Virus genome (UHGV): UHGV-0125203
Direction: 5' to 3' (one strand)
Source of the DNA: a virus
Length of the DNA stretch: 23,234 bases
The position numbers and the translations under genes are program-made. Under the pieces are notes generated by a model that saw only the letters and a list, made by a program, of their open reading frames with translations, did not search any database and was not told the origin of the DNA. Positions 9,955 to 23,234 of the stretch are shown piece by piece; position 1 is the first letter of the stretch, and each line of letters begins with the position of its first letter.

Positions 9955-10907
9955 TGGCTGATTCGAATCTCAACACCCCTGTTATTGTGCAGGCTACACG
10001 ACTCGACACATCAGTACTTCCACGCAATATCTTCTCGCAGTCGTATCTGCTTTACGTTATTGCACAGGGTACTGATGTTGGTAACGTGGCGAACAAGGCC
10101 AACGAAGCAGGGAAGGGAGCTTATGATGCACAGGTGAAGAATGATGAGCAGGATGTCACCCTTGCAGACCATGAATCCAGAATTGCTGCTGCTGAAGCAA
10201 CTCTCGTCAATCATGAACATAGAATCGCAGCAGCGGAAAGCACTCTTGCAGATCATGAAACAAGGATTACGGCTGCCGAAACAGAGCTGGCTGATCACGA
10301 GACGCGAATTGCTGCCAATGAATCTGAGTTAGCAGACCATGATGCGCGCATAACTCAGAATACAACCGATATCGACGCACTTGATACCAGGCTCGCAGCG
10401 GCAGAGGGAAGTATTTCGACGCTACAAAGCACAGTTGGTGATCACTCAACAAGAATATCTGCGCTTGAGTATGCCACCACGCGCAAGAAATCAGAGGTTG
10501 TTTACTCAGGAGTATCTGTAACCATCCCGACAGCGCCGACCAACCTTGTTAGCCTGCTGAAAACGCTCACGCCGTCATCCGGAACGTTGGCACCATTCTT
10601 CGACACCGTTAACAACAAGATTGTTGTGTTCAACGAGAACAAAACCTTGTTCTTCAAGCTGTCGATTGTCGGGACGTGGCCCAGCGGAACCGCCAACAGG
10701 TCAATGCAGCTAACCTTTTCCGGTTCTGTTCCTGACACACTTGTGAGCAGTCGTAACTCGGCGACAACAACCGATAACATCCTGTTAGCTACGTTCTTCA
10801 GCGTGGATAAAGACGGCTTTCTTGCCACAAATGGCAGTACGTTAACCATTCAGTCAAATGGTGCGGCGTTTACTGCCACAACCATCAAAATCATTGCGGA
10901 GCAGTGA
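9954..10907 (+). CDS. Tail needle protein (P22 gp26-like) with C-terminal knob domain
   Basis: 317 aa; central trimeric coiled-coil-like region with five 14-aa repeats ([16 protein letters not shown]) and a beta-rich C-terminal extension, as in Sf6/HK620-type needles. Start ATG overlaps the gp10-like stop (TAATG). Confidence 0.85.
10158..10367 (+). repeat. Five tandem 42-bp (14-codon) repeats inside the tail-needle gene
   Basis: Protein repeats [14 protein letters not shown] / [14 protein letters not shown] / [14 protein letters not shown] / [14 protein letters not shown] / [14 protein letters not shown] read directly from the translation (residues 69-138). Confidence 0.8.
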
Positions 10908-11374
10908 TGAAAATAAAGCTCATCGATAATCCGGTGAAGCTTGCAGAATTCCTCAACAACCCGGCAAACACGGGAAATATCGTAGACAGTGGAGATAAAT
11001 ACTACATCAAGCCTGATGCGGTATATCTCGGCATCTACGAAGGATTAATGCTGGCTGGCGTTCATGAAGTGCGTAACTTCTGGCATAGCGTTGTTGAATG
11101 CCATGCGGTGTATGACCCCGGATTCCGTGGAGAGTATGCACTGCAAGGGCATCGATTATTCTGCAAATGGCTTCTCGAAAACTCACCATTCCTTAACAGC
11201 ATCACCATGGTTCCTGACACCACCAAATACGGACGGTCAATTATCCGTTTGCTTGGCGCTACCCGTGTTGGTCACCTTGATGATGCGTACATGAGTAACG
11301 GAAAACCGGTAGGAATCACCCTCTATCAATTACCTCGTTCGAAATATGAGGAGCTAATAAATGTTAGTACTTAG
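10907..11374 (+). CDS. Internal virion / ejection-associated protein (P22 gp14-like by position)
   Basis: About 155 aa ORF immediately after the needle gene (stop and start overlap, TGATG), preceding the gp7/gp20/gp16-like genes. Assignment is by synteny. The track start at 10904 is a GTG; ATG at 10907 is preferred. Confidence 0.6.
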   Translation: MKIKLIDNPVKLAEFLNNPANTGNIVDSGDKYYIKPDAVYLGIYEGLMLAGVHEVRNFWHSVVECHAVYDPGFRGEYALQGHRLFCKWLLENSPFLNSITMVPDTTKYGRSIIRLLGATRVGHLDDAYMSNGKPVGITLYQLPRSKYEELINVST

Positions 11375-12020
11375 CGAAAGCTTCAAGAATAAATTGCTTC
11401 CCATGAATGGGTATATGAAAGGCGGCAGCGACTCCGGCTCTAAAGCCCAGGCACGCGCAACTGAAAAGGGCATCGAATTGCAGCGTGAAATGTGGCAAAC
11501 GAACATGCAGAACCTTGCACCGTTCACACCACTCGCTCAGCAGTACGTATCACAGTTGCAAAATCTTTCCTCTCTTCAGGGGCAAGGTCAGGCGCTTAAC
11601 CAGTATTACAACTCCCAGCAGCACAAAGACCTTGCAGGGCAGGCGCGTTACCAGAGTCTGGCAGCAGCAGAGGCAACGGGTGGATTAGGCTCTACAGCAA
11701 CAGGAAACCAGTTAGCAGCAATCGCACCTACACTAGGTCAAAACTGGCTGTCAGGTCAGATGAATAACTACAACAATCTGGCAAATATCGGCCTTGGTGC
11801 TCTTACAGGTCAGGCAAACGCCGGGCAGAACTACGCTAACAACGTCAGCCAATTGTATCAACAGCAGGCGGCGGCAGCGGCAGCAAATGCCAATAAACCG
11901 TCTGGTTTTCAGAGTGCTCTCGGTGGAGCTGCGGCAGGTGCTGCGATGGGTACTGCAATCATGCCTGGTTGGGGTACAGCAATTGGTGCTGGCGTCGGCC
12001 TTCTTGGTTCACTGTTTTAA
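11361..12020 (+). CDS. DNA ejection protein (P22 gp7-like)
   Basis: 219 aa, Q/N-rich with a Gly/Ala-rich hydrophobic C-terminal segment (GGAAAGAAMGTAIMPGWGTAIGAGVGLLGSLF); GAGGAG RBS; conserved position. Confidence 0.75.
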   Translation: MLVLSESFKNKLLPMNGYMKGGSDSGSKAQARATEKGIELQREMWQTNMQNLAPFTPLAQQYVSQLQNLSSLQGQGQALNQYYNSQQHKDLAGQARYQSLAAAEATGGLGSTATGNQLAAIAPTLGQNWLSGQMNNYNNLANIGLGALTGQANAGQNYANNVSQLYQQQAAAAAANANKPSGFQSALGGAAAGAAMGTAIMPGWGTAIGAGVGLLGSLF

Positions 12021-12032
12021 TGGAGGTGTCTC

Positions 12033-13427
12033 TTGGCTACATGGCAACAGGCTGGTAATTCAGGCGCGCTTCTTGCCGGGTTAGGCGGCATGAACTCCAA
12101 CGCTCCAAGAGCAAGTGATGCAGACGCCACGCTTGCATACATTCGACAGAATAACGAGATGGAGCGTTCAGGACGTAATAACGTTGGCTTGCAGGCTTTG
12201 CAGGGCATTTCATCTGTCATGGATATGTACAAGCAGATGGATCAGCAGAAGCGGCAGCAAGAGTTTCAGCAGGCTTATGCTGATGCATATACATCTGGTG
12301 ACCGCGATGCAATGCGAAAACTGGCATCACAGTATCCTGAGCAGTTTGACGCTGTAAGAAACGGCATGAAATTTGTCGATGAAGACCAGCGTTCCACTGT
12401 CGGTACACTGGCAGCAAGTGCCAGACTCGCAGCTTCATCTCCAGAAGCCATGATGTCATGGTTGCAGAACAACTCATCTGAGCTTACTCGTGCCGGAGTA
12501 GACCCTCTGGATGTGGCGAAAATGTATCAGCAAAATCCACAAGGTTTCACAGAGTTTGTTGATCACCTTGGAATGGCTGCTCTTGGTCCAGAACAATATT
12601 TTCAGGCGCAAGACAGAATCGTTGGGCGTGAGATTGATCGCGGAAAACTTGCAGAGACAATCCGCAGCAATCAGGCTGGCGAGGCGCTAACAGCACGAGG
12701 TCAGAACATCACGATGCGCGGTCAGGATTTATCTGCTTCTACTGCGCGACGCGGGCAGGATTTGGCAATGCAGCGAGCGTCAACAAGAGGAACCGCTGGG
12801 AATGATGAGCGTACAGTTCAGTTATCAGATGGCAGAACTGTAACGGTTGGCGGGAAACTTCACGGCGCTGGGGCAAATGCGTTCTACGAAGGCATCGACA
12901 ACGAGGGGAATATGGTTCGCGTTCCTGCCAGTTCAATCGCAGCGCCTGCAACATCGTCTGCATCAGCACAAAACTATGCCATGAAGAAGGATATCGACGC
13001 GATCGCAAATGCAGACGCTTCTGCTCTCGATTTCATGACAGGAATGACCGGCGGCGCAGGTAACCCGGCAATTGGTGCTGATGTTCGCAGCCGATTAACA
13101 GGAAAAGAGCAGCGCCAGTTATATAACTCAGCACAACGTATTCAGGGCAGAATGCAGAATCAGGGTGTGGCGGCAGCAAGGGACATGGGTGCCAGTGGTA
13201 TTAACACCGTTGCAGAAGCGAAGATGTATTTTCAGGGGATGCCGCAGGTTGACTATTCAAGCCCGGAGGCTATGCAGCAGTCGATTCGTGAGATTCAGGA
13301 ATACACCAACAATTACAACCAACAATATAACGTTAATGTTGGTAAATCTCAGCGGCAGCAATCTCAACCTGCACAGGTATCACAGCCAGCAGCCAGCAGT
13401 AACTTTTCTTCACTATGGGGTGATTAA
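12033..13427 (+). CDS. DNA ejection protein (P22 gp20-like)
   Basis: 464 aa, conserved position after the gp7-like gene. The frame begins at TTG 12033 with GGAGG at 12022-12026; no in-frame ATG near the 5' end. Confidence 0.75.
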
Positions 13428-15424
13428 TGGCTAAAGCATGGAAAGATGTTATCGCCTCTCCACAGTATCAGGCGTTAGCACCAGAACAAAAAGCGCAGGC
13501 TCAGGAGCAATACTTCAATGAAGTCGTGGCCCCGCAAGCCGGAGAAAATGCAGAGCAGGCTAAGCAAGCTTTCTATGCTGCCTATCCATTGCCATCTGTG
13601 CAGCAAGTGGAGACACAGCAACCAGTAGCACAGCAACAACCACAGCAAAGTGGATTTATGTCTGATCTTGGCGAAGCAGTAAAAGAGACTGGTCGCGGAA
13701 TTGTGCAGGCTGGCGTGAACGTGGCAAACATACCTGCATCAATTGCCGATGCTGTAACAAGCGCGGCGGCTTGGGCTGGCGGTAAACTCGGCATTGGCGA
13801 TGGTACATATCAACCAGCGCCACGAGTAACAACGCAGGGATTAGAGCAGGACTTTGGCCTTCAGCAAGGCGCGCTGACTCCACAAACGACAGAGGGCAGG
13901 GTATTTGCTGAGGCATTGCCTTACCTCACTCCTGCTGGCATTGAGAGAGCGGCGGCACAGGCACCAACACTTGCTAGTCGAATTGCTCAGGGGGCAACTC
14001 GCCTTCTCGCTGAAAACGCAGTTGGATCACTTGCTGCAAATAGTGCGAAAGATGATGCGGAAGCACTCGCCACCGATTTAGGCGTTGGTGTACTGGCTGG
14101 CGGTGCTATTAACGCTGCCGGACGTGGATTAGGTGCTGCTTATCGTGGCGTTCGTGGTGCTATCGCGCCAGAAGCGCAGCAGGCTATCAGATTTGCAGAG
14201 CGTGAAGGAGTTCCTCTGCACACCACAGACCTGTTACAACCAACTTCCCGCGTCGGGAAAATGGCGCAGACTACAGCAGAAAATATTCCTCTGGCTGGCA
14301 CAAGCGGAATGAGAGCAACGCAACAGGAAGCGAGAAGTCAGTTGGTGCAGAGATTTGCTGATAAATTCGGCGAGTACGATCCGGCAGTTGTTATTGACAG
14401 CCTTAAAGCGAAAACATCAGGAATTCGGCGTGCTGCAGGAAATCGACTGGAGCAGGTTCAGAATGCTATGGCGGGAATAAACATTCAGCCTGCAAGAGCA
14501 ATTCAGCAGATTGATACAGAAATATCTAACCTGCAGAAGCTTGGTAAGGTTGCTGATAACGAGACTATTTCAAAACTTCAGTCCTATCGTGATGAGCTTG
14601 TTCGCAATGCTGGTCCTGATGGTCCGGTAAATCTGGATTTGAAGCAATTAAGCGATCTGCGCAGCCAGTTCAGAATGGACGTGAAGGGGGAGCGACCAGT
14701 GTTACCAAACCGTTCCGATGCTGCCATTCAGCGCGTTTACAAGGCAATGACAGACGATATCAATGGTGCCATTGGTCAGAATCTTGGCAACGATACTCTC
14801 CGTAAATATCAGCAGGCCAATGCCGTCTACGCTGACGAAGCGGCGAAACTAAAGAATACCAGGCTGAAGAATGTTCTCATGAAAGGCGACCTGACGCCGG
14901 AAGTTGTCAACAACATGCTATTCAGCAAGAACAAATCGGAAATTAAGACGCTGTATAACTCAGTTGGTCGTGTTGGCAGGGCGCAAATGCGCAATGGCAT
15001 CATTGGAAAGGCGATGGAGAAATCAGGTGGTTCCCCTGACCAGTTCCTTCGACAGCTTAACATCCTGCAAAACCAGACTGGCATCACATTTAAAGGTCAG
15101 GAAGCCGCTTATCTGAAAGGATTAAAAAACTACCTGCAATCCACGCAGCAGGCTGCAAAAGCGGCAGTAACAACACCCACAGGGCAGCAAACTATCCCGT
15201 TCATTATTGGGTATGGGACGGCAATGAACCCGGCGACAACTGGCGCAGCAGTAAGCTACGGACTTCTTACTCGCGCCTATGAGAGCGAGCCATTCAGAAA
15301 TGCAATGCTCCGAATGGCAAACACCCCACGCGGATCAACAGCGTTTGAGAAAGCCATGCAGCAGGCACAAAAGGCAATTAACGCTCTGACGCAGGGGGCT
15401 AAGTCTGATGCGTTGTCAGAATAG
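13427..15424 (+). CDS. DNA ejection protein (P22 gp16-like)
   Basis: 665 aa, Ala/Gly/Gln-rich; last large gene of the ejection-protein block; start overlaps the gp20-like stop (TAATG). Confidence 0.75.
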   Translation: MAKAWKDVIASPQYQALAPEQKAQAQEQYFNEVVAPQAGENAEQAKQAFYAAYPLPSVQQVETQQPVAQQQPQQSGFMSDLGEAVKETGRGIVQAGVNVANIPASIADAVTSAAAWAGGKLGIGDGTYQPAPRVTTQGLEQDFGLQQGALTPQTTEGRVFAEALPYLTPAGIERAAAQAPTLASRIAQGATRLLAENAVGSLAANSAKDDAEALATDLGVGVLAGGAINAAGRGLGAAYRGVRGAIAPEAQQAIRFAEREGVPLHTTDLLQPTSRVGKMAQTTAENIPLAGTSGMRATQQEARSQLVQRFADKFGEYDPAVVIDSLKAKTSGIRRAAGNRLEQVQNAMAGINIQPARAIQQIDTEISNLQKLGKVADNETISKLQSYRDELVRNAGPDGPVNLDLKQLSDLRSQFRMDVKGERPVLPNRSDAAIQRVYKAMTDDINGAIGQNLGNDTLRKYQQANAVYADEAAKLKNTRLKNVLMKGDLTPEVVNNMLFSKNKSEIKTLYNSVGRVGRAQMRNGIIGKAMEKSGGSPDQFLRQLNILQNQTGITFKGQEAAYLKGLKNYLQSTQQAAKAAVTTPTGQQTIPFIIGYGTAMNPATTGAAVSYGLLTRAYESEPFRNAMLRMANTPRGSTAFEKAMQQAQKAINALTQGAKSDALSE

Positions 15425-15514: not shown

Positions 15515-16000
15515 TTATCTGATGTTACTGCTACTGTTGCATGTGACTGTATTTACAAACCCTGAATTGCAGTTTGTGTAAGTGTCAACGCGTGTTGGAT
15601 AGGGTTGAGTTATAACAGGCTGTCTCGCTTTTTGCTCGATCGCTTGCATTGTGTTTACAGCCTGATAATTCAATAAAGCCTGCTGGAATGCTTGGCTTTG
15701 CGCTATTTGTTGGGCTTGTTCTTGGCTTTGTAATTGAACATAAAGATTCTGAAGCTCAAGTCTTGCCTGTGCGTCACTTATCTTGCCTTCATCGACACTT
15801 TGCCCGAGCATCTTTGCAGCAAGGACATACAGCTTAGGTGTTGGTGCTGATGCCATGCGTGAGTCGTTCTTCACACTGGCATCAAGGCAATTAGCCATAT
15901 CGCTAAGCTTTGGATAGCGTTGTTCGCAACTTGCCTGATAGTCGCTAACCTTTGCACACCCTGCCAGCAGAAGCGGGATAATTAACAGTGATTTTTTCAT
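15515..16000 (-). CDS. Predicted lipoprotein (moron; candidate superinfection-exclusion or host-modulating protein)
   Basis: Minus-strand ORF; preferred start is the ATG at 16000 with AAGGAG 10 nt upstream, giving MKKSLLIIPLLLAGC (signal peptide with LAGC lipobox). Q-rich predicted helical region and six Cys. The track's longer 171-aa form starts at 16030. Confidence 0.7.
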   Translation of the reverse strand: MKKSLLIIPLLLAGCAKVSDYQASCEQRYPKLSDMANCLDASVKNDSRMASAPTPKLYVLAAKMLGQSVDEGKISDAQARLELQNLYVQLQSQEQAQQIAQSQAFQQALLNYQAVNTMQAIEQKARQPVITQPYPTRVDTYTNCNSGFVNTVTCNSSSNIR

Positions 16001-16134
16001 ATGATTAACTCTCCTTATCTTTGCCATCATGGCACTGTTGGGTGTAAATGAGTTATTAACTCAATCGACAATATCTTCACGAAAATACTTTTTATTATTA
16101 AGATCTTTCTGATTCTAACAAAACGGAAAGTAAT

Positions 16135-16554
16135 ATGAAGAGGATTATCGGCGTCGTTGCTGGCGCTATATTGTTATCTGGGTGCGCAACTATTGTTGGT
16201 GACGAAACACAGCTTGTGCAAGTGAACAGCAATCCTTCCGGTGCGAGCTTTAAGGTAAAAGACGAATCAGGCGTGATTGTTGCGCAAGGTAAGACCCCGC
16301 AAGGAGTAACTCTTGCCAAGTCAGATGGTAGTTATTTTGGCAAAAAGAGCTATCAGATCACTATGGAAAAGGATGGGTACGAGCCAGTAACCTTGCCAAT
16401 CAAAGCCAATGCTAATGGTTGGTATATTGGTGGAAACCTTGTGTTTGGTGGGTTAATTGGTTGGCTTGCTGTAGATCCATTTAATGGTGGGATGTATACC
16501 TTGAAGCCAAAAGAGGCAAACGCATCTCTTATACCATCAACAAAGCAAGACTAA
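16135..16554 (+). CDS. Predicted lipoprotein with PEGA-like beta-sandwich motif and Gly-rich hydrophobic C-terminal segment
   Basis: 139 aa; MKRIIGVVAGAILLSGC (signal peptide with LSGC lipobox); NPSGASFKV...GKTPQGV resembles a PEGA-type motif; GGNLVFGGLIGWLAVDPFNGG is Gly-zipper-like; followed by a strong terminator. Confidence 0.7.
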   Translation: MKRIIGVVAGAILLSGCATIVGDETQLVQVNSNPSGASFKVKDESGVIVAQGKTPQGVTLAKSDGSYFGKKSYQITMEKDGYEPVTLPIKANANGWYIGGNLVFGGLIGWLAVDPFNGGMYTLKPKEANASLIPSTKQD

Positions 16555-16562
16555 TAAATAGG

Positions 16563-16585
16563 ACCCACCTTCAGGTGGGTTTTTT
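16563..16585. terminator. Bidirectional intrinsic terminator between the lipoprotein gene and mnt
   Basis: Stem ACCCACC (16563-16569), loop TTCA, stem GGTGGGT (16574-16580), then T5 on the plus strand and a T-rich run on the minus strand; the mnt stop codon lies within the hairpin. Confidence 0.75.
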
Positions 16586-16822
16586 GTACAAATCCTTCAG
16601 CGTATCAAACACCATCTTCTTAACAAGCTCTGATTGCTCATCAGCGATGCGTTCCGCATCGTCTCGATAGCCTGAAATTTTGGATGGCTTTGATACAGCA
16701 TCAGTCACTATCTGAACTAATTCTGAATTAAGAGAGCGGCCATTGGATTTGGCTCGCTGTTTTAGTTTTTCCTTTAATTCGTAAGGTAGCCGCAGATTAA
16801 ATTGCGGGTCATCTCTTCCCAT
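16571..16822 (-). CDS. mnt: Mnt repressor (ribbon-helix-helix, P22 immI maintenance repressor homologue)
   Basis: 83 aa; MGRDDPQFNLRLPYELKEKLKQRAKSNGRSLNSELVQIVTDAVSKP...DAERIADEQSELVKKMVFDTLKDLYKK matches recalled P22 Mnt almost residue for residue. Confidence 0.9.
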   Translation of the reverse strand: MGRDDPQFNLRLPYELKEKLKQRAKSNGRSLNSELVQIVTDAVSKPSKISGYRDDAERIADEQSELVKKMVFDTLKDLYKKPT

Positions 16823-16968: not shown

Positions 16969-18405
16969 ATGACAGACATTACAGCTAATGTTGTAGTGAG
17001 TATGCCTTCGCAACTCTTCACTATGGCGCGTTCTTTTAAAGCCGTAGCCAATGGCAAAATTTATATCGGTAAAATTGACACTGACCCTGTAAATCCTGAA
17101 AACCGGATTCAGGTTTATGTAGAGAACGAAGACGGCTCTCACGTTCCTGTTGCACAGCCAATCATCATTAACGCTGCTGGATATCCGGTATATAACGGAC
17201 AGATTGCCAAATTCGTAACTGTGCAAGGCCATTCTATGGCTGTATATGATGCGTACGGTTCTCAGCAGTTCTATTTTCCGAATGTGCTGAAGTATGACCC
17301 GGATCAGTTAAGAGTAGTTTTGACTGGACAGTCTGGTGATGGACTTAATAATTTTTATGCTGGCTCAGGATGGACTGGTTCAGATGCAGCTGGTGACAAT
17401 ATTTATAACAATGAAACTATCATATATAAAAATGCTACACGACAGAGATTCTCCATACCAGAAACACCAATTCCAGATCCCATTATTTGGCTGGAAAAAA
17501 TTAGTTCTGCAACTAGGGATGACGGCATCAAACGATGGGATCAGGGGGTAATTTATAACTCTTTGCGCAAGGTGTCAGGAAGTGCATATACATGCACAAC
17601 TACAAGTGTTGCTAAGCATGAGGGCGGGAATGGGCATTCAATTGGTCACCACATGCGTGGAGAATCAAGAAATCCGCAAGCCGAAACATGGGGGGGGTGG
17701 TCATATGGTGCAGTATTAGGAGATGCAGTGCAGAATGGAGCGATTAGCACTATTGCACATGAATTTAATCTGAATAATCGAGGTCCCGATAAAGGATGGA
17801 TGGAGAATACACTGCAAGGATCTGTAAGAGGGTTGGTATGTGTAACTCAGGATAAAAGCAATCCAGTAACACAGATGATTACCATCGGAAGAGGGAGTAA
17901 AGCTCCAAATGGTTATATCTGGACAGGAATGTTGTTTAGAGGTAATTCTATTTCCACTCCAACAGAGGAACTAACCGAGGTAGGTAATGGCGAATACATC
18001 AGACTTGAGGGATCTCTATCATCTAGAGCTGCAAACGGCATTAGATTTAGAACAAATTATTTTAGGAGTGGAATTTCATTTTCTGAAGCTGGATTTTCAA
18101 ACAACTGCGCAATTTTGATGGGCGACAATCAACGAATTACGGTAGGAACGGGCCCGGCAAATACAACACATTTGAGTTTCAACAGGTCTGAAAACTGGGC
18201 TAACTTCAACAACTTAAGAATACGACTTAATGGCAATCAAGTTATTTCAGAGAGGAGGACGGGATGGGGATCGCCAACCGGCACCGTATCCCGAGCAGCA
18301 TTTAACTCTGGAACAATAACTCACGAAGATTTAGCAAAGGTGGTTGCAGCATTAATTCAGGACTTACATGCTTCAACCGGGCATGGATTAATTGGTTTAA
18401 CTTAA
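16969..18405 (+). CDS. Tailspike protein: P22 gp9-type head-binding domain fused to a divergent receptor-binding domain
   Basis: Residues 1 to about 113 ([13 protein letters not shown]...NVLKYDPDQ) match the recalled P22 gp9 N-terminal domain; the remaining ~365 aa are unrelated to the P22 beta-helix and are encoded by visibly AT-rich DNA. Total 478 aa, shorter than P22/Sf6/HK620 tailspikes. GGAG RBS. Confidence 0.85.
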
Positions 18406-18417
18406 CAGGACAATAAA

Positions 18418-18603
18418 ATGGATAAGCAAACTATTCAAAATATCATGCAGTTTATGCTTCGCGTAAATCTTAGCGGTCATGAAGTTCCTGCTTTTAATTC
18501 TTCAATGAATGCATTACAGGCTGAATTAGATCGCGAAAATGACCAGCCACTCCAGCGAGTACTAAATGCTGCTCACAATGAACCTGTTACGGAGAATGAT
18601 TAA
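18418..18603 (+). CDS. Hypothetical small protein linked to the tailspike
   Basis: 61-aa ORF starting 12 nt after the tailspike stop with AGGA RBS; same AT-rich composition as the tailspike C-terminal domain. No family recognised. Confidence 0.45.
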   Translation: MDKQTIQNIMQFMLRVNLSGHEVPAFNSSMNALQAELDRENDQPLQRVLNAAHNEPVTEND

Positions 18604-19101
18604 AATGAAAACAGAAAGCGGTGCTTTCAAATTTGACGGTGGAGAGGTTAAATGAATTAACAGCATTGCCATTATTGAAGTGCGCGGTAACGGGTGGGGC
18701 GCTGGTTTTTATTTTAAGCCAAATACTGCCGTTAAAGTCGATGGTAATAAGCCTGATCTGAACGAGTTTCGTGATTCCTGCGCATTGTCGGTAATGACTC
18801 CAACTTACTGATAGTGTTTTATGTTCAGATAATGCCCGATGACTTTGTCATGCAACTCCACCGATTTTGAGAACGACAGCGACTTCCGTCCCAGCCGTGC
18901 ACCAGGCTGGTTCAGAATCAGGTTCTGCTGATTTTGTCCGGCGGCAGAACGCAATTTGCCAGAGTGATGGGAAGGGCATTAATCACGGATGATGGTGAAG
19001 CGATCGAAGTGGAGGCGGCGGAAGAGGTGGAGGTGATGGGGCGTGTTACGTACTTCATCAACAGCGCGCTGCAGGATGGCGTGGTGGTGTGATGGGTGGC
19101 A

Positions 19102-20259
19102 TTACTCCACCTTTTCATCAATCCAATCTGCCCACCACTGCATCATTTCTCTGCGCTTATCGAGATACTGTGCATGGTTGTAAATCCCACGCACAGATCC
19201 GCCGTTGGCATGTGCCAGTTGCACTTCAATGGCGTCGGCAGGCCATTCGTGCTCGTTCATAATCGTGCTGAATTCATGCCTGAATCCGTGACCGCTTTCC
19301 AGACCTTCATAGCCGATTTGTTTAATCACAAGCAGTACCGCGTTCTCGCAGATTGGCTTCTTCTTATCGTTGCGCCCGGCAAAAACAAACTCTGATACTG
19401 GTTTGGTGATTGAGCTTAGCGTAGTGAGAAGTTCAACCACCTGGTCTGACATCGGCACTACATGAATCTTGCGGCCCTTCATCACACTGGCGTCGATGGT
19501 GATAATCCTGTTTTCAAAATCGACGTTCTTCCATAGCATGGAACGAAGCTCTTTCGTTCTTAGGGCTGTGTAGCGTAAAACCTTGGTGGCAATGAGCGAT
19601 ACGATACTTCCTGAAAATGTTGCCAGTGCTTTGTTAAATGCCGTGATCTGGTCTGCAGGAAGAAACGGGAAGTTCTTCTTGCGGTATCCCTTCATGGCGT
19701 CAGCAAGGTCAGGTGCTGGGTTATATTTAGCCCTGCCGGTGACAATAGCGTAACGGAAAACCTCTCCGCATCTTCTGCGGGCTTTATTGGCTCTCTCCAT
19801 TGCCCCGCGCTCTTCAAATCTGCGGATTACTTCCAGCAGTTGCATCGGCTCAATATCTTGAATTTCAAGGCCGCCGATGATAGGTAAAATGTCGTCATCA
19901 AACATTCTGGCAAGTTCAGTAGCATAACCTACAGACCAGACTTGCTTCTTGTGCTCGTACCATTCCTTGTAAATGGCGCTAAAGGAATTGTTGTTAGACG
20001 AAGCCTTTTTTGCTTTTACCGGATCGATGCCAACCGAGATGTCTTTCCTCGCAGTCCATGCTTTATCCCTTGCCTCCTGCAAAGTCATAAGCGGATATTT
20101 TCCGACGGTCAGGATTTTCTCCTTACCGTCAATCTTGTAGCGAAGCTGCCATACCTTTTTCCCTGATACAGGGACATAAAGGTACAGGCCATTACCATCG
20201 AGAAGGCGGTATGGTTTTTCTTTCGGCTTTGCTGCTTCAATCTGCTTAACGGTGAGCAT
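19102..20259 (-). CDS. intS: Tyrosine integrase, P4 type (IntS-like)
   Basis: Sequence from MLTVKQIEAAKPKEKPYRLLDGNGLYLYVPVSGKKVWQLRYK... onward matches recalled E. coli CPS-53/KpLE1 IntS; 5' end lies about 160 bp from the tRNA-Arg gene. The track ORF starts at a GTG at 20295; ATG at 20259 is preferred. Confidence 0.92.
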   Translation of the reverse strand: MLTVKQIEAAKPKEKPYRLLDGNGLYLYVPVSGKKVWQLRYKIDGKEKILTVGKYPLMTLQEARDKAWTARKDISVGIDPVKAKKASSNNNSFSAIYKEWYEHKKQVWSVGYATELARMFDDDILPIIGGLEIQDIEPMQLLEVIRRFEERGAMERANKARRRCGEVFRYAIVTGRAKYNPAPDLADAMKGYRKKNFPFLPADQITAFNKALATFSGSIVSLIATKVLRYTALRTKELRSMLWKNVDFENRIITIDASVMKGRKIHVVPMSDQVVELLTTLSSITKPVSEFVFAGRNDKKKPICENAVLLVIKQIGYEGLESGHGFRHEFSTIMNEHEWPADAIEVQLAHANGGSVRGIYNHAQYLDKRREMMQWWADWIDEKVE

Positions 20260-20420
20260 GGGTAAAAATCCGGTGGGTAAAATTATTTTATCCACTTTTT
20301 ACCCGTCATGGAGTGCGGCTGTCAACGATCTGACGCGAACCATTACGAACTGTGCATCTACAGAAGGCTTGATATTCAGGGGATTTTGCGGACTGGTACG
20401 GATGGGAGCGAACTGATAAA

Positions 20421-20495
20421 TGGTGTCCCCTGCAGGAATCGAACCTGCAATTAGCCCTTAGGAGGGGCTCGTTATATCCATTTAACTAAGAGGAC
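20421..20495 (-). tRNA. argW: tRNA-Arg (CCU anticodon; argW-type), prophage attachment site
   Basis: Reverse complement reads GTCCTCTTAGTTAAATGGATATAACGAGCCCCTCCTAAGGGCTAATTGCAGGTTCGATTCCTGCAGGGGACACCA (75 nt), with anticodon-loop CUCCUAA, T-loop GGTTCGATTCC and 3' CCA. Confidence 0.93.
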
Positions 20496-20570: not shown

Positions 20571-21503
20571 TTATGCCGGGTTTTTATCATTTTTCTTAAT
20601 GTTTTCCGCACGTTCTGCTTTTTGGCGTGCTTCTGCTTTGCGCTTGTTGCTCATGTCGTTACGAATCTGTGCATGACTCATTAACGCGAAGATAAAGGTG
20701 CCGCCGCAGATGTTCCCCGCTAAAGTAGGTAGTGCGAAGGGCCAGATGAAATCGCTCCAGTGCAGCGTACCGTTAAACACCAGATAGAGGATTTCAACAG
20801 AACCGACAACGATGTGAGTGGTGTCACCCAGGGCAATAAGCCAGGTCATCAATATAATCACCACAATCTTTGCCGCACCCGCTGCAGGAAACATCCATAC
20901 CATAGTGGCGATCAGCCAGCCGGAAATGATCGCGTTGGCAAACATCTCGCTGGGGGTGTTCTTCATCACATCCATGCCGATTTTGACAAATGCATCGCGA
21001 GTTTCTTCATTGAAGATTGGCATATATTCAAATGCCCACGCCGCAATACCTGTCCCGAGAATATTACCCAGCAGCACGACGCCCCATAACCGTATAAGTA
21101 AGCCGACGTTGCTCATTGTCGGTTTTTGCATGACGGGTAGTACCGCAGTCACGGTATTTTCGGTAAATAATTGCTGGCGGGCCATAATGACGATAATAAA
21201 ACCAAAGGTATAACCGAGATTCTCCAGCAAGAAGCTGCCCGGCACACCTTCCAGTTCGACTTGAAATATCCCTTTTGCCAGTAACGAAGCGCCCATCGAC
21301 AGACCCGCCGCAATGGCTGACCACAGTAGCGCCATTGCGTCGCGTTCCAGCTCTTTTTCACCATCCTGGCGGATATGCTCATGAATTGCCATCGCCCGGG
21401 AGGGGAGTCGATCTTCATCTATTTCTATTTTTTTGCCGCGCTCTTTTTCTTCGCTCTCAACTTCAATTTCGTCGCTGTGTTGATCAATTTTGTCGTTGTC
21501 CAT
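20571..21503 (-). CDS. yfdC: Formate/nitrite transporter family inner-membrane protein YfdC (host gene)
   Basis: 310 aa, multiple hydrophobic helices, acidic N-terminus; size and position next to argW and mlaA match the E. coli yfdC locus. Confidence 0.85.
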   Translation of the reverse strand: MDNDKIDQHSDEIEVESEEKERGKKIEIDEDRLPSRAMAIHEHIRQDGEKELERDAMALLWSAIAAGLSMGASLLAKGIFQVELEGVPGSFLLENLGYTFGFIIVIMARQQLFTENTVTAVLPVMQKPTMSNVGLLIRLWGVVLLGNILGTGIAAWAFEYMPIFNEETRDAFVKIGMDVMKNTPSEMFANAIISGWLIATMVWMFPAAGAAKIVVIILMTWLIALGDTTHIVVGSVEILYLVFNGTLHWSDFIWPFALPTLAGNICGGTFIFALMSHAQIRNDMSNKRKAEARQKAERAENIKKNDKNPA

Positions 21504-21796: not shown

Positions 21797-22552
21797 ATGA
21801 AGCTTCGCCTGTCGGCGCTTGCTCTGGGAACTACGCTTCTGGTGGGGTGTGCGAGTTCCGGTACAGATCAGCAAGGGCGTTCTGACCCGTTAGAAGGGTT
21901 CAACCGCACCATGTACAACTTCAACTTCAATGTATTAGACCCGTATATTGTTCGACCGGTCGCTGTCGCCTGGCGTGATTATGTTCCGCAACCGGCGCGT
22001 AACGGTTTGAGCAACTTTACTGGCAACCTTGAAGAACCTGCGGTGATGGTTAACTACTTCTTGCAGGGCGACCCTTATCAGGGGATGGTCCACTTTACCC
22101 GCTTTTTCCTGAACACCATTTTGGGGATGGGCGGCTTTATTGATGTTGCAGGGATGGCGAACCCGAAACTGCAACGGACTGAACCTCACCGCTTCGGTAG
22201 TACGCTTGGTCATTATGGCGTGGGTTATGGGCCTTACGTCCAGTTACCGTTCTACGGTAGCTTCACGCTGCGTGATGACGGTGGTGATATGGCGGATGGT
22301 CTTTACCCGGTTCTTTCCTGGCTGACCTGGCCGATGTCTGTGGGTAAATGGACGCTTGAAGGGATCGAAACCCGCGCACAGCTGCTGGATTCCGATGGTC
22401 TGCTGCGTCAGTCGTCCGATCCTTATATTATGGTGCGCGAAGCGTACTTCCAGCGTCATGATTTCATCGCTAATGGCGGCGAACTCAAACCGCAGGAAAA
22501 TCCGAACGCGCAAGCGATTCAGGATGATTTAAAAGATATCGATTCTGAATAA
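21797..22552 (+). CDS. mlaA: Outer-membrane lipoprotein MlaA (VacJ), phospholipid asymmetry maintenance (host gene)
   Basis: 251 aa starting MKLRLSALALGTTLLVGCASSG (lipobox); sequence matches recalled E. coli MlaA/VacJ; conserved neighbour of yfdC and argW. Confidence 0.92.
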   Translation: MKLRLSALALGTTLLVGCASSGTDQQGRSDPLEGFNRTMYNFNFNVLDPYIVRPVAVAWRDYVPQPARNGLSNFTGNLEEPAVMVNYFLQGDPYQGMVHFTRFFLNTILGMGGFIDVAGMANPKLQRTEPHRFGSTLGHYGVGYGPYVQLPFYGSFTLRDDGGDMADGLYPVLSWLTWPMSVGKWTLEGIETRAQLLDSDGLLRQSSDPYIMVREAYFQRHDFIANGGELKPQENPNAQAIQDDLKDIDSE

Positions 22553-22733: not shown

Positions 22734-23234
22734 TTAAATATCATCAAAATTAACACCTGGCGCAGATAGTTGATTAATTTCATTTTGATATTTCGCCTGG
22801 CGATTTTGAAGTCTTTTTTCAACGTTATCTTCGAGATCCTTAAAGTCTTTGTATTTATTTTCAGGATGGTCAACGTCAACTTTGTTAGCGAATAAATTAG
22901 AAATTATTTCTTTTACATTATCGCGTCTAAATTTTGCATCGTCCACTTGAAAATTATATCTTATTGCTCGACCTAAACGTTTAAAAACTTCGTTTGGCTC
23001 TCTCAGTCTTTCCCCGTTGAGCTCGTTTACAACCTGATGATCGGAACCTGTTGCAAATGATTCTGCCATGATAGCTTTACTGCTTTCAAACCACGCTGAA
23101 GCATTCCTGGCTTTTTCACTACAATATTGGGTGAGACTATCACCATTAATACGAATTCCTCTTTGAATGTGGTAGTCGTCCTGATCGTAGTAACCGAGAG
23201 ATAAGTAATCATTTCCGTTTTTATTTTTAATTAC
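22734..23234 (-). CDS. 3' part of an AT-rich host-flank gene, 5' end beyond the window (possibly yfdF-like by synteny)
   Basis: Hand translation shows the minus-strand frame of the 111-aa track ORF stays open from 23069 to the window edge, so the gene is truncated by the window rather than starting at 23069. Convergent with mlaA; the yfdF assignment is from recalled K-12 gene order only. Confidence 0.5.
   Translation of the reverse strand, partial: VIKNKNGNDYLSLGYYDQDDYHIQRGIRINGDSLTQYCSEKARNASAWFESSKAIMAESFATGSDHQVVNELNGERLREPNEVFKRLGRAIRYNFQVDDAKFRRDNVKEIISNLFANKVDVDHPENKYKDFKDLEDNVEKRLQNRQAKYQNEINQLSAPGVNFDDI

Follow-up and report, generated by a model that had tools for sequence, protein, structure and literature searches.

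An argW junction of the KplE1/HK620/Sf6 recombination module at the probable attL end of a P22-like prophage

The window, by which we mean the whole analysed stretch of 23,234 nucleotides (UHGV virus genome UHGV-0125203), very probably carries the argW-proximal end of a P22-like (Lederbergvirus) prophage of the Sf6/HK620 type, at a junction equivalent to attL in the nomenclature of KplE1. The junction belongs to the KplE1/HK620/Sf6 argW recombination module, a known system, and is not novel; the KplE1/IntS/TorI/argW module has been characterised both biochemically and genetically (Panis et al. 2010, PMC2951348; Panis et al. 2012, PMC3509656). An earlier, sequence-only reading of this DNA had recognised the integration site of K-12 CPS-53/KpLE1, and comparison of argW and of the att arm with K-12 bears this out. 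Every element of the junction was identified in the window by its sequence identity, beginning with the tRNA, the core and the integrase:

20421-20495, minus strand: argW, an intact tRNA-Arg(CCU) gene (ARAGORN, Rfam, K-12 identity)
20420-20435, minus strand: 16-nt att core CTGCAGGGGACACCAT, the crossover region (exact match to the published core)
19102-20259, minus strand: intS, a tyrosine integrase of 385 aa (identity to K-12 IntS, Sf6 Int and P4 Int; Pfam)

ARAGORN detected a single tRNA gene in the window, a tRNA-Arg with the anticodon CCT at 20421-20495 on the minus strand, which scored 63.4 bits against the Rfam tRNA family (RF00005; gathering score 29). This gene is identical base for base to K-12 argW, and its upstream flank is identical or nearly so to that of K-12; the tRNA-Arg(CCU) that had been called intact from the letters alone is thus indeed intact. 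The core of KplE1 is the 16-nt sequence CTGCAGGGGACACCAT, present at both ends of the prophage (PMC2951348). In the window it consists of the final 15 nt of argW and one further base, in the region (around 20421-20440) in which the core had been anticipated, and the attP core of Sf6 is the same.

The edge of the phage DNA could be placed to the base. Megablast alignments of the window to the free phages Sf6, HF4s, N7 and IME10 all end at 20435. In IMG/VR, a search for contigs with an uninterrupted attP (P arm, core and P' arm) gave 14 viral sequences, generally of 37-41 kb, every one of which aligns to the window up to exactly 20435; in the 10 that reach far enough, the alignment starts at 19095-19116, the position of the intS stop codon. 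Since phage homology ends exactly at 20435, this position marks the boundary between prophage and host, and the two limits together define as the conserved unit a cassette of 1.33 kb (19101-20435) that comprises int and the P' arm and is flanked by host DNA at one end and by a variable slot at the other.

Begun at a GTG, the intS open reading frame would run from 19102 to 20295. That codon precedes the transcription start published for intS, so the true initiation codon is the ATG at 20259, the one annotated both for K-12 and for RefSeq relatives. From the 3' end of the tRNA (20421) to this ATG (20259) the gap measures 161 nt, in agreement with the distance of about 160 bp given previously. 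The match to E. coli IntS was likewise confirmed; 381 of 385 residues (99%) are identical to K-12 IntS, the differences being K118R, D150E, P206T and L380I, and identity to Sf6 Int is 98%. Threonine-206 is also found in the copy of strain EF5-18-41 and is absent from that of Sf6. Three Pfam domains, Arm-DNA-bind_3 (DUF4102), Phage_int_M and Phage_integrase, were recognised with E-values of 2e-25, 3e-28 and 7e-39, respectively, and BLASTP aligned the protein to P4 Int over its full length at 35% identity (E 2e-76); these domains and this similarity place IntS among the P4-type tyrosine integrases, a label that was fairly given. Both argW and intS lie on the minus strand with the tRNA first, the arrangement termed STI.

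The sites of KplE1 were reportedly first mapped by Panis, Mejean and Ansaldi in 2007 (J Biol Chem 282:21798). Their counterparts in the window were positioned from the coordinates and motifs in PMC2951348 and by motif searches on the window, and the primers attL-SpeI and attL-KpnI were matched to the sequence by eye:

20237-20456 (about), minus strand: counterpart of the 220-bp attL fragment (primers attL-SpeI and attL-KpnI, PMC3509656)
20388-20415, minus strand: TorI block I1;2, consisting of CAGTTCGC, a 12-nt spacer and CAGTCCGC, the same as in K-12
20325-20352, minus strand: TorI block I3;4;5, CAGTTCGT-AA-TGGTTCGC-GT-CAGATCGT
20287-20325, minus strand: PintS promoter, with -35 TTGACA at 20320-20325, -10 TAAAAA at 20296-20301 and start at about 20287/20288
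20260-20304, minus strand: candidate IntS arm-type (P') sites, assigned from their TAAA motif

All five TorI boxes of the attL P' arm are as in K-12 (I1 at 20408-20415 and I2 at 20388-20395, 12 nt apart; I3 at 20345-20352, I4 at 20335-20342 and I5 at 20325-20332, with spacers of 2 nt), as are the four TAAA motifs and the -35 and -10 boxes of PintS, and the motifs sit at the published offsets from the intS ATG. The TAAA motif of the IntS arm-type sites has been described (PMC2951348); candidates for such sites are GGGTAAAA at 20297-20304 and GGATAAAA at 20286-20293, together with the inverted motif TTTTACCC at 20275-20282 and at 20260-20267. PintS and its start site were determined experimentally in K-12 by primer extension (PMC2951348), and the promoter sequence in the window, which overlaps arm-type site P'1, is identical to that of K-12. 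A generic sigma-70 scan of the window did not report PintS, because the -10 box TAAAAA is without the T that the scanner requires at the last position. Six substitutions separate the arm from that of K-12, none of them in a mapped box, a promoter hexamer or an arm-type motif; two fall in the 2-nt spacers I3/I4 and I4/I5, two just upstream of I3 and two between the box blocks. The substitutions span 20333-20344 and 20353-20375, a variation consistent with the published box assignments. Binding sites, promoter and regulation are carried over from the published K-12 experiments, and by analogy would be expected to operate in the same way at this junction.

The recombination mechanism has been shown for K-12 and HK620 substrates, and the near-identity of the sequences suggests that it would apply here. 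IntS would recombine the phage attP with the last 15-16 nt of argW to integrate the prophage, and argW would stay intact because the phage copy of the core would rebuild the 3' end of the tRNA. Phages of the Sf6/HK620 group have attP between int and xis (torI), so that integration would leave intS beside the tailspike and cargo genes and torI at the opposite end of the prophage. Being separated in the prophage from the early operon, intS would be transcribed away from argW by its own sigma-70 promoter, PintS, within the P' arm of attL. PintS would be repressed by IntS, acting at the arm-type site that overlaps the -10 box, and also by TorI, acting at I4 and I5 beside the -35 box; this would keep the integrase at a low and constant level, and excision would depend on IHF and on TorI expressed at the opposite end of the prophage. 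The catalytic domain of IntS binds the core and its N-terminal domain the arm-type sites; the efficiency of excision has a narrow optimum of IntS concentration, with TorI expression as the control, and in K-12 the repression of PintS by TorI goes through I4 and I5 (PMC2951348). TorI binds the attL boxes and directs excision, IHF is required in vitro, and the 220-bp attL fragment recombines in vitro with IntS, TorI and IHF (PMC3509656).

A second core was sought in the window with up to 3 mismatches to CTGCAGGGGACACCAT allowed, and a second att copy by general direct-repeat finding; neither search found one, which excludes that the window itself contains a tandem or composite arrangement. The expectation that the second copy lies to the left of the window agrees with this result and with relatives of the same layout, which would put the second core there. 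In strain WCHEC115106 the cores are at 6469-6484 of locus L005 (beside torI) and at 45927-45942 (in argW), 39,458 bp apart; these are the only two, and they bracket one P22-like genome, as do those of EF5-18-41. By the layout of these relatives, a second core, CTGCAGGGGACACCA, should lie about 19 kb left of window position 1, and is predicted about 39-40 kb left of 20435, after torI and the P arm (...GGGTAAAATAGCGGGTAAAATATT...AAGTAGATGT). The predicted attP junction is GTAGATGT-core-TTATCAGTTCGC, and the predicted attB is argW-core-host flank. In strains with the csc sucrose genes at the argW flank, the core at attR reads CTGCAGGGGACACCAG and differs at the 16th base, so that the identical segment there is 15 nt, exactly the 3' end of the tRNA (in related complete genomes, at L005 6469-6484 and L002 17825-17840). 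In EF5-18-41 a fragment of a DUF4942 gene lies just past attR.

To the right of argW the window continues into host DNA:

20571-21503, minus strand: yfdC, host gene (Pfam Form_Nir_trans; RefSeq annotation)
21797-22552, plus strand: mlaA, host gene (Pfam MlaA; RefSeq annotation)
22734-23234, minus strand: gene beyond mlaA, the C-terminal part of a 415-aa hypothetical protein

The host genes yfdC and mlaA named by the sequence-only reading are thus both present, by Pfam and by the RefSeq annotation of matching genomes. The gene at 22734-23234 is not K-12 yfdF; it has a counterpart in EF5-18-41 and in a 108-kb metagenome contig, and at 91% protein identity is noticeably more diverged than the neighbouring host genes. 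A disruption of this right-end gene was considered and rejected, as it reads through in frame to the edge of the window.

The block intS-argW-yfdC-mlaA, at a coverage of at least 80%, is present in 1505 of 5426 complete E. coli genomes (~28%). Precise recombination at the core predicts uninterrupted empty sites. Synthetic empty sites were built in which the argW side continues directly into the host flank on the far side of attR; single, uninterrupted matches of 99.4-100% identity were obtained for the dsdC type in 911 and for the csc type in 1412 of the 5426 genomes. The comparison with empty argW sites that had been proposed thus agrees with this prediction, the reconstructed sites being common among E. 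coli genomes; free attP forms of the module are common as well, which lends indirect support to its recombination activity. An exact-protein look-up with the tailspike led to four independent contigs, from metagenomes or assemblies and one of them of 108 kb, in which prophage and junction are present again with 99.5-100% identity.

On the other side of intS are a cargo slot, a tailspike gene and a virion module:

1683-15424, plus strand: P22/Sf6-like virion assembly genes, all full-length ORFs
16969-18405, plus strand: tailspike of 478 aa, a P22-type head-binding domain with a heterologous receptor-binding part
18406-19101, unstranded: variable cargo slot from tailspike to int, in which homology to relatives stops at the intS stop
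18418-18603 (61 aa) and 18934-19092 (52 aa): small cargo-slot ORFs (ORF calls)
18790-18928: IS1 end fragment of 139 nt, 93% identical to the IS1A end

The virion genes encode homologues of the small and large terminase, portal, scaffold, coat, gp4, gp10, needle, gp14, gp7, gp20 and gp16, with full profile coverage in Pfam or sizes equal to those of annotated relatives, and the needle carries an Sf6-type knob. The small terminase and gp16, without Pfam matches, were assigned by position and size; a gp16 of identical length in a relative (L007) has a precomputed Phage_P22_gp16 match. The genes follow the canonical order of the P22-like (Lederbergvirus) virion module, with DNA matches to Sf6 and HK620, and the late region that had been called apparently complete does contain the full late gene set. 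In the tailspike, residues 1-113 correspond to Pfam Head_binding and are ~90% identical to those of HK620, CUS-3 and Gally. Residues 114-476 match a siphovirus protein (Kagunavirus LM02P1) at 64.5% identity and nothing from a P22-like phage in the collection searched; that similarity reaches residue 476 speaks against truncation.

Several further observations concern the left part of the window. Two ORFs at 15515-16030 (minus strand) and 16135-16554 (plus strand) have lipoprotein-like signal peptides (LLAGC and LLSGC) and no Pfam match; they lie between gp16 and a full-length Mnt/Arc-like repressor gene (16571-16822), the position of the P22 immI/sieA region, and may be exclusion or moron genes. 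A Rha-family regulatory gene (162-722) has the lysis region on one side and the genes for the gp49-like and DUF2560 proteins on the other, and segment 1-728 is missing from several otherwise closest relatives, marking another mosaic joint. For the gp49-like protein, the product of the leftmost specific gene, an exact-protein look-up gives unrelated phages because the protein is very common.

Homology to K-12, Sf6 and WCHEC115106 ends at the stop codon of intS, and each of these carries its own cargo in the slot beyond: Sf6 has oac, K-12 gtrABS and WCHEC115106 a wzy-like gene. Neither the 61-aa nor the 52-aa ORF of the window has a match in Pfam or NCBIfam. The 61-aa ORF accompanies this tailspike in all four near-identical contigs. 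The 52-aa ORF was considered as a remnant of the 99-aa gene upstream of intS in SCZE5, and this was rejected for want of a DNA match. The IS1 scar beside intS shows some decay of the cargo slot. In a relative the fragment is annotated as a partial IS1 transposase, and in other strains a whole IS1 occupies the place; a Logan contig 100% identical to the window terminates within it.

Decay of this kind bears on whether the element is still mobile. We infer that the prophage is whole and still able to excise; it is possible, if on balance doubtful, that the junction is real and belongs to a defective element fixed in place, a remnant comparable to K-12 CPS-53/KplE1 that would have lost the ability to produce phage through deletion or mutation of attR or of the early region. 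Besides the IS1 fragment, that explanation can draw on the position of the early genes, torI and attR outside the window and on the state of two relatives, EF5-18-41 with pseudogenised gp20 and tailspike and WCHEC115106 with a split DnaB-like helicase gene. It is opposed by the virion genes, which are full-length ORFs throughout the window, by the intact attL and intS, and by the near-identical copies in several independent samples, which suggest recent mobility. KplE1 itself is still able to excise.

A more ambitious interpretation, which we consider rather improbable, would make the element an active and so far undescribed Sf6-like phage with a mosaic short tailspike and small cargo proteins in place of O-antigen modifiers. 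If it were true, the 61-aa and 52-aa proteins could be new lysogenic-conversion or exclusion factors, and the att junction would still be the known module.

That the integrase is joined to the late region, the point on which the sequence-only reading had laid weight, is correct; it is not remarkable, this being the standard layout of Sf6, HK620 and CUS-3, with attP between int and xis (PMC2951348). These phages share with the window the order late genes, tailspike, cargo, int, attP, xis; the annotation of the Shigella phage Sf6 (AF547987) gives tailspike (gene 14), oac (15), int (16), attP core, gene 17 and gene 18 in that order. Sf6 gene 18 is a homologue of TorI (PMC3509656). Large parts of the virion module are ~95-97% identical in DNA to these phages, the attP core is the same and the Int of Sf6 is 98% identical; the Sf6 group differs in the receptor-binding domain of the tailspike, and Sf6 carries oac where the window has small ORFs and the IS1 scar. 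The late region is partly mosaic, any one phage covering 40-64% of the window.

This shared layout also weighs on a composite origin, in which intS and attL would be what remains of an earlier element at argW, with a second phage, inserted next to it, as the source of the P22-like late region. The IS1 scar between tailspike and intS speaks for such a structure, and in the P22 prophage int is not adjacent to the tailspike; it lies at the end opposite the tailspike, beside xis. Against it, neither a core nor a core-like sequence (up to 3 mismatches) occurs between intS and the late genes or elsewhere in the window, the free phages Sf6, HF4s, N7, IME10 and CUS-3 have the same order of tailspike, cargo, int and attP, and in the complete relatives only two cores bracket one genome of 39.5 kb; we regard a composite as very unlikely. 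A coincidental or non-phage integrative island, with an integrase functionally unlinked to the tRNA, has nothing in its favour but the general frequency of tRNA-linked islands and is refuted by 99% identity to an experimentally characterised IntS and by an attL identical at all mapped sites, which leaves it a negligible probability; a chance match as the source of the junction features is excluded.

The integrated Sf6/HK620-type prophage, as the reading we prefer, can also be set beside better-known systems. KplE1 (CPS-53) of K-12 has the same tRNA, 16-nt core and STI orientation, an IntS of 99% identity and identical sites in the 161-nt arm; the K-12 element is, however, a remnant of 10.2 kb that lacks virion genes and has gtrABS after intS, whereas in the window intS adjoins a decayed cargo slot, with a full late region of P22 type beyond. 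P4 resembles the module in the architecture of its integrase, in the transcription of int away from an upstream att core, in arm repeats over the 5' region of int and in integration at the 3' end of a tRNA, but it targets leuX, has a different core, uses the excisionase Vis and is a different kind of element. With lambda and P22 the module shares a heterobivalent tyrosine integrase (arm- and core-type sites), dependence on IHF and an excisionase that sets the direction; in those phages int and xis lie together and are co-transcribed from pL towards att, whereas here att splits int from xis and int has its own autoregulated promoter inside attL.

With the boundary at 20435 and the mapped attL elements, this end of the prophage can be annotated at base level, and it also predicts the other end, where a second core would be found beside torI, ~39-40 kb away. 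Beyond annotation the significance is small. The junction is mildly useful as a copy of the IntS/argW module on a seemingly whole virion module, and as a case in which the natural variation of attL spares the mapped protein-binding boxes, in line with the published site assignments.
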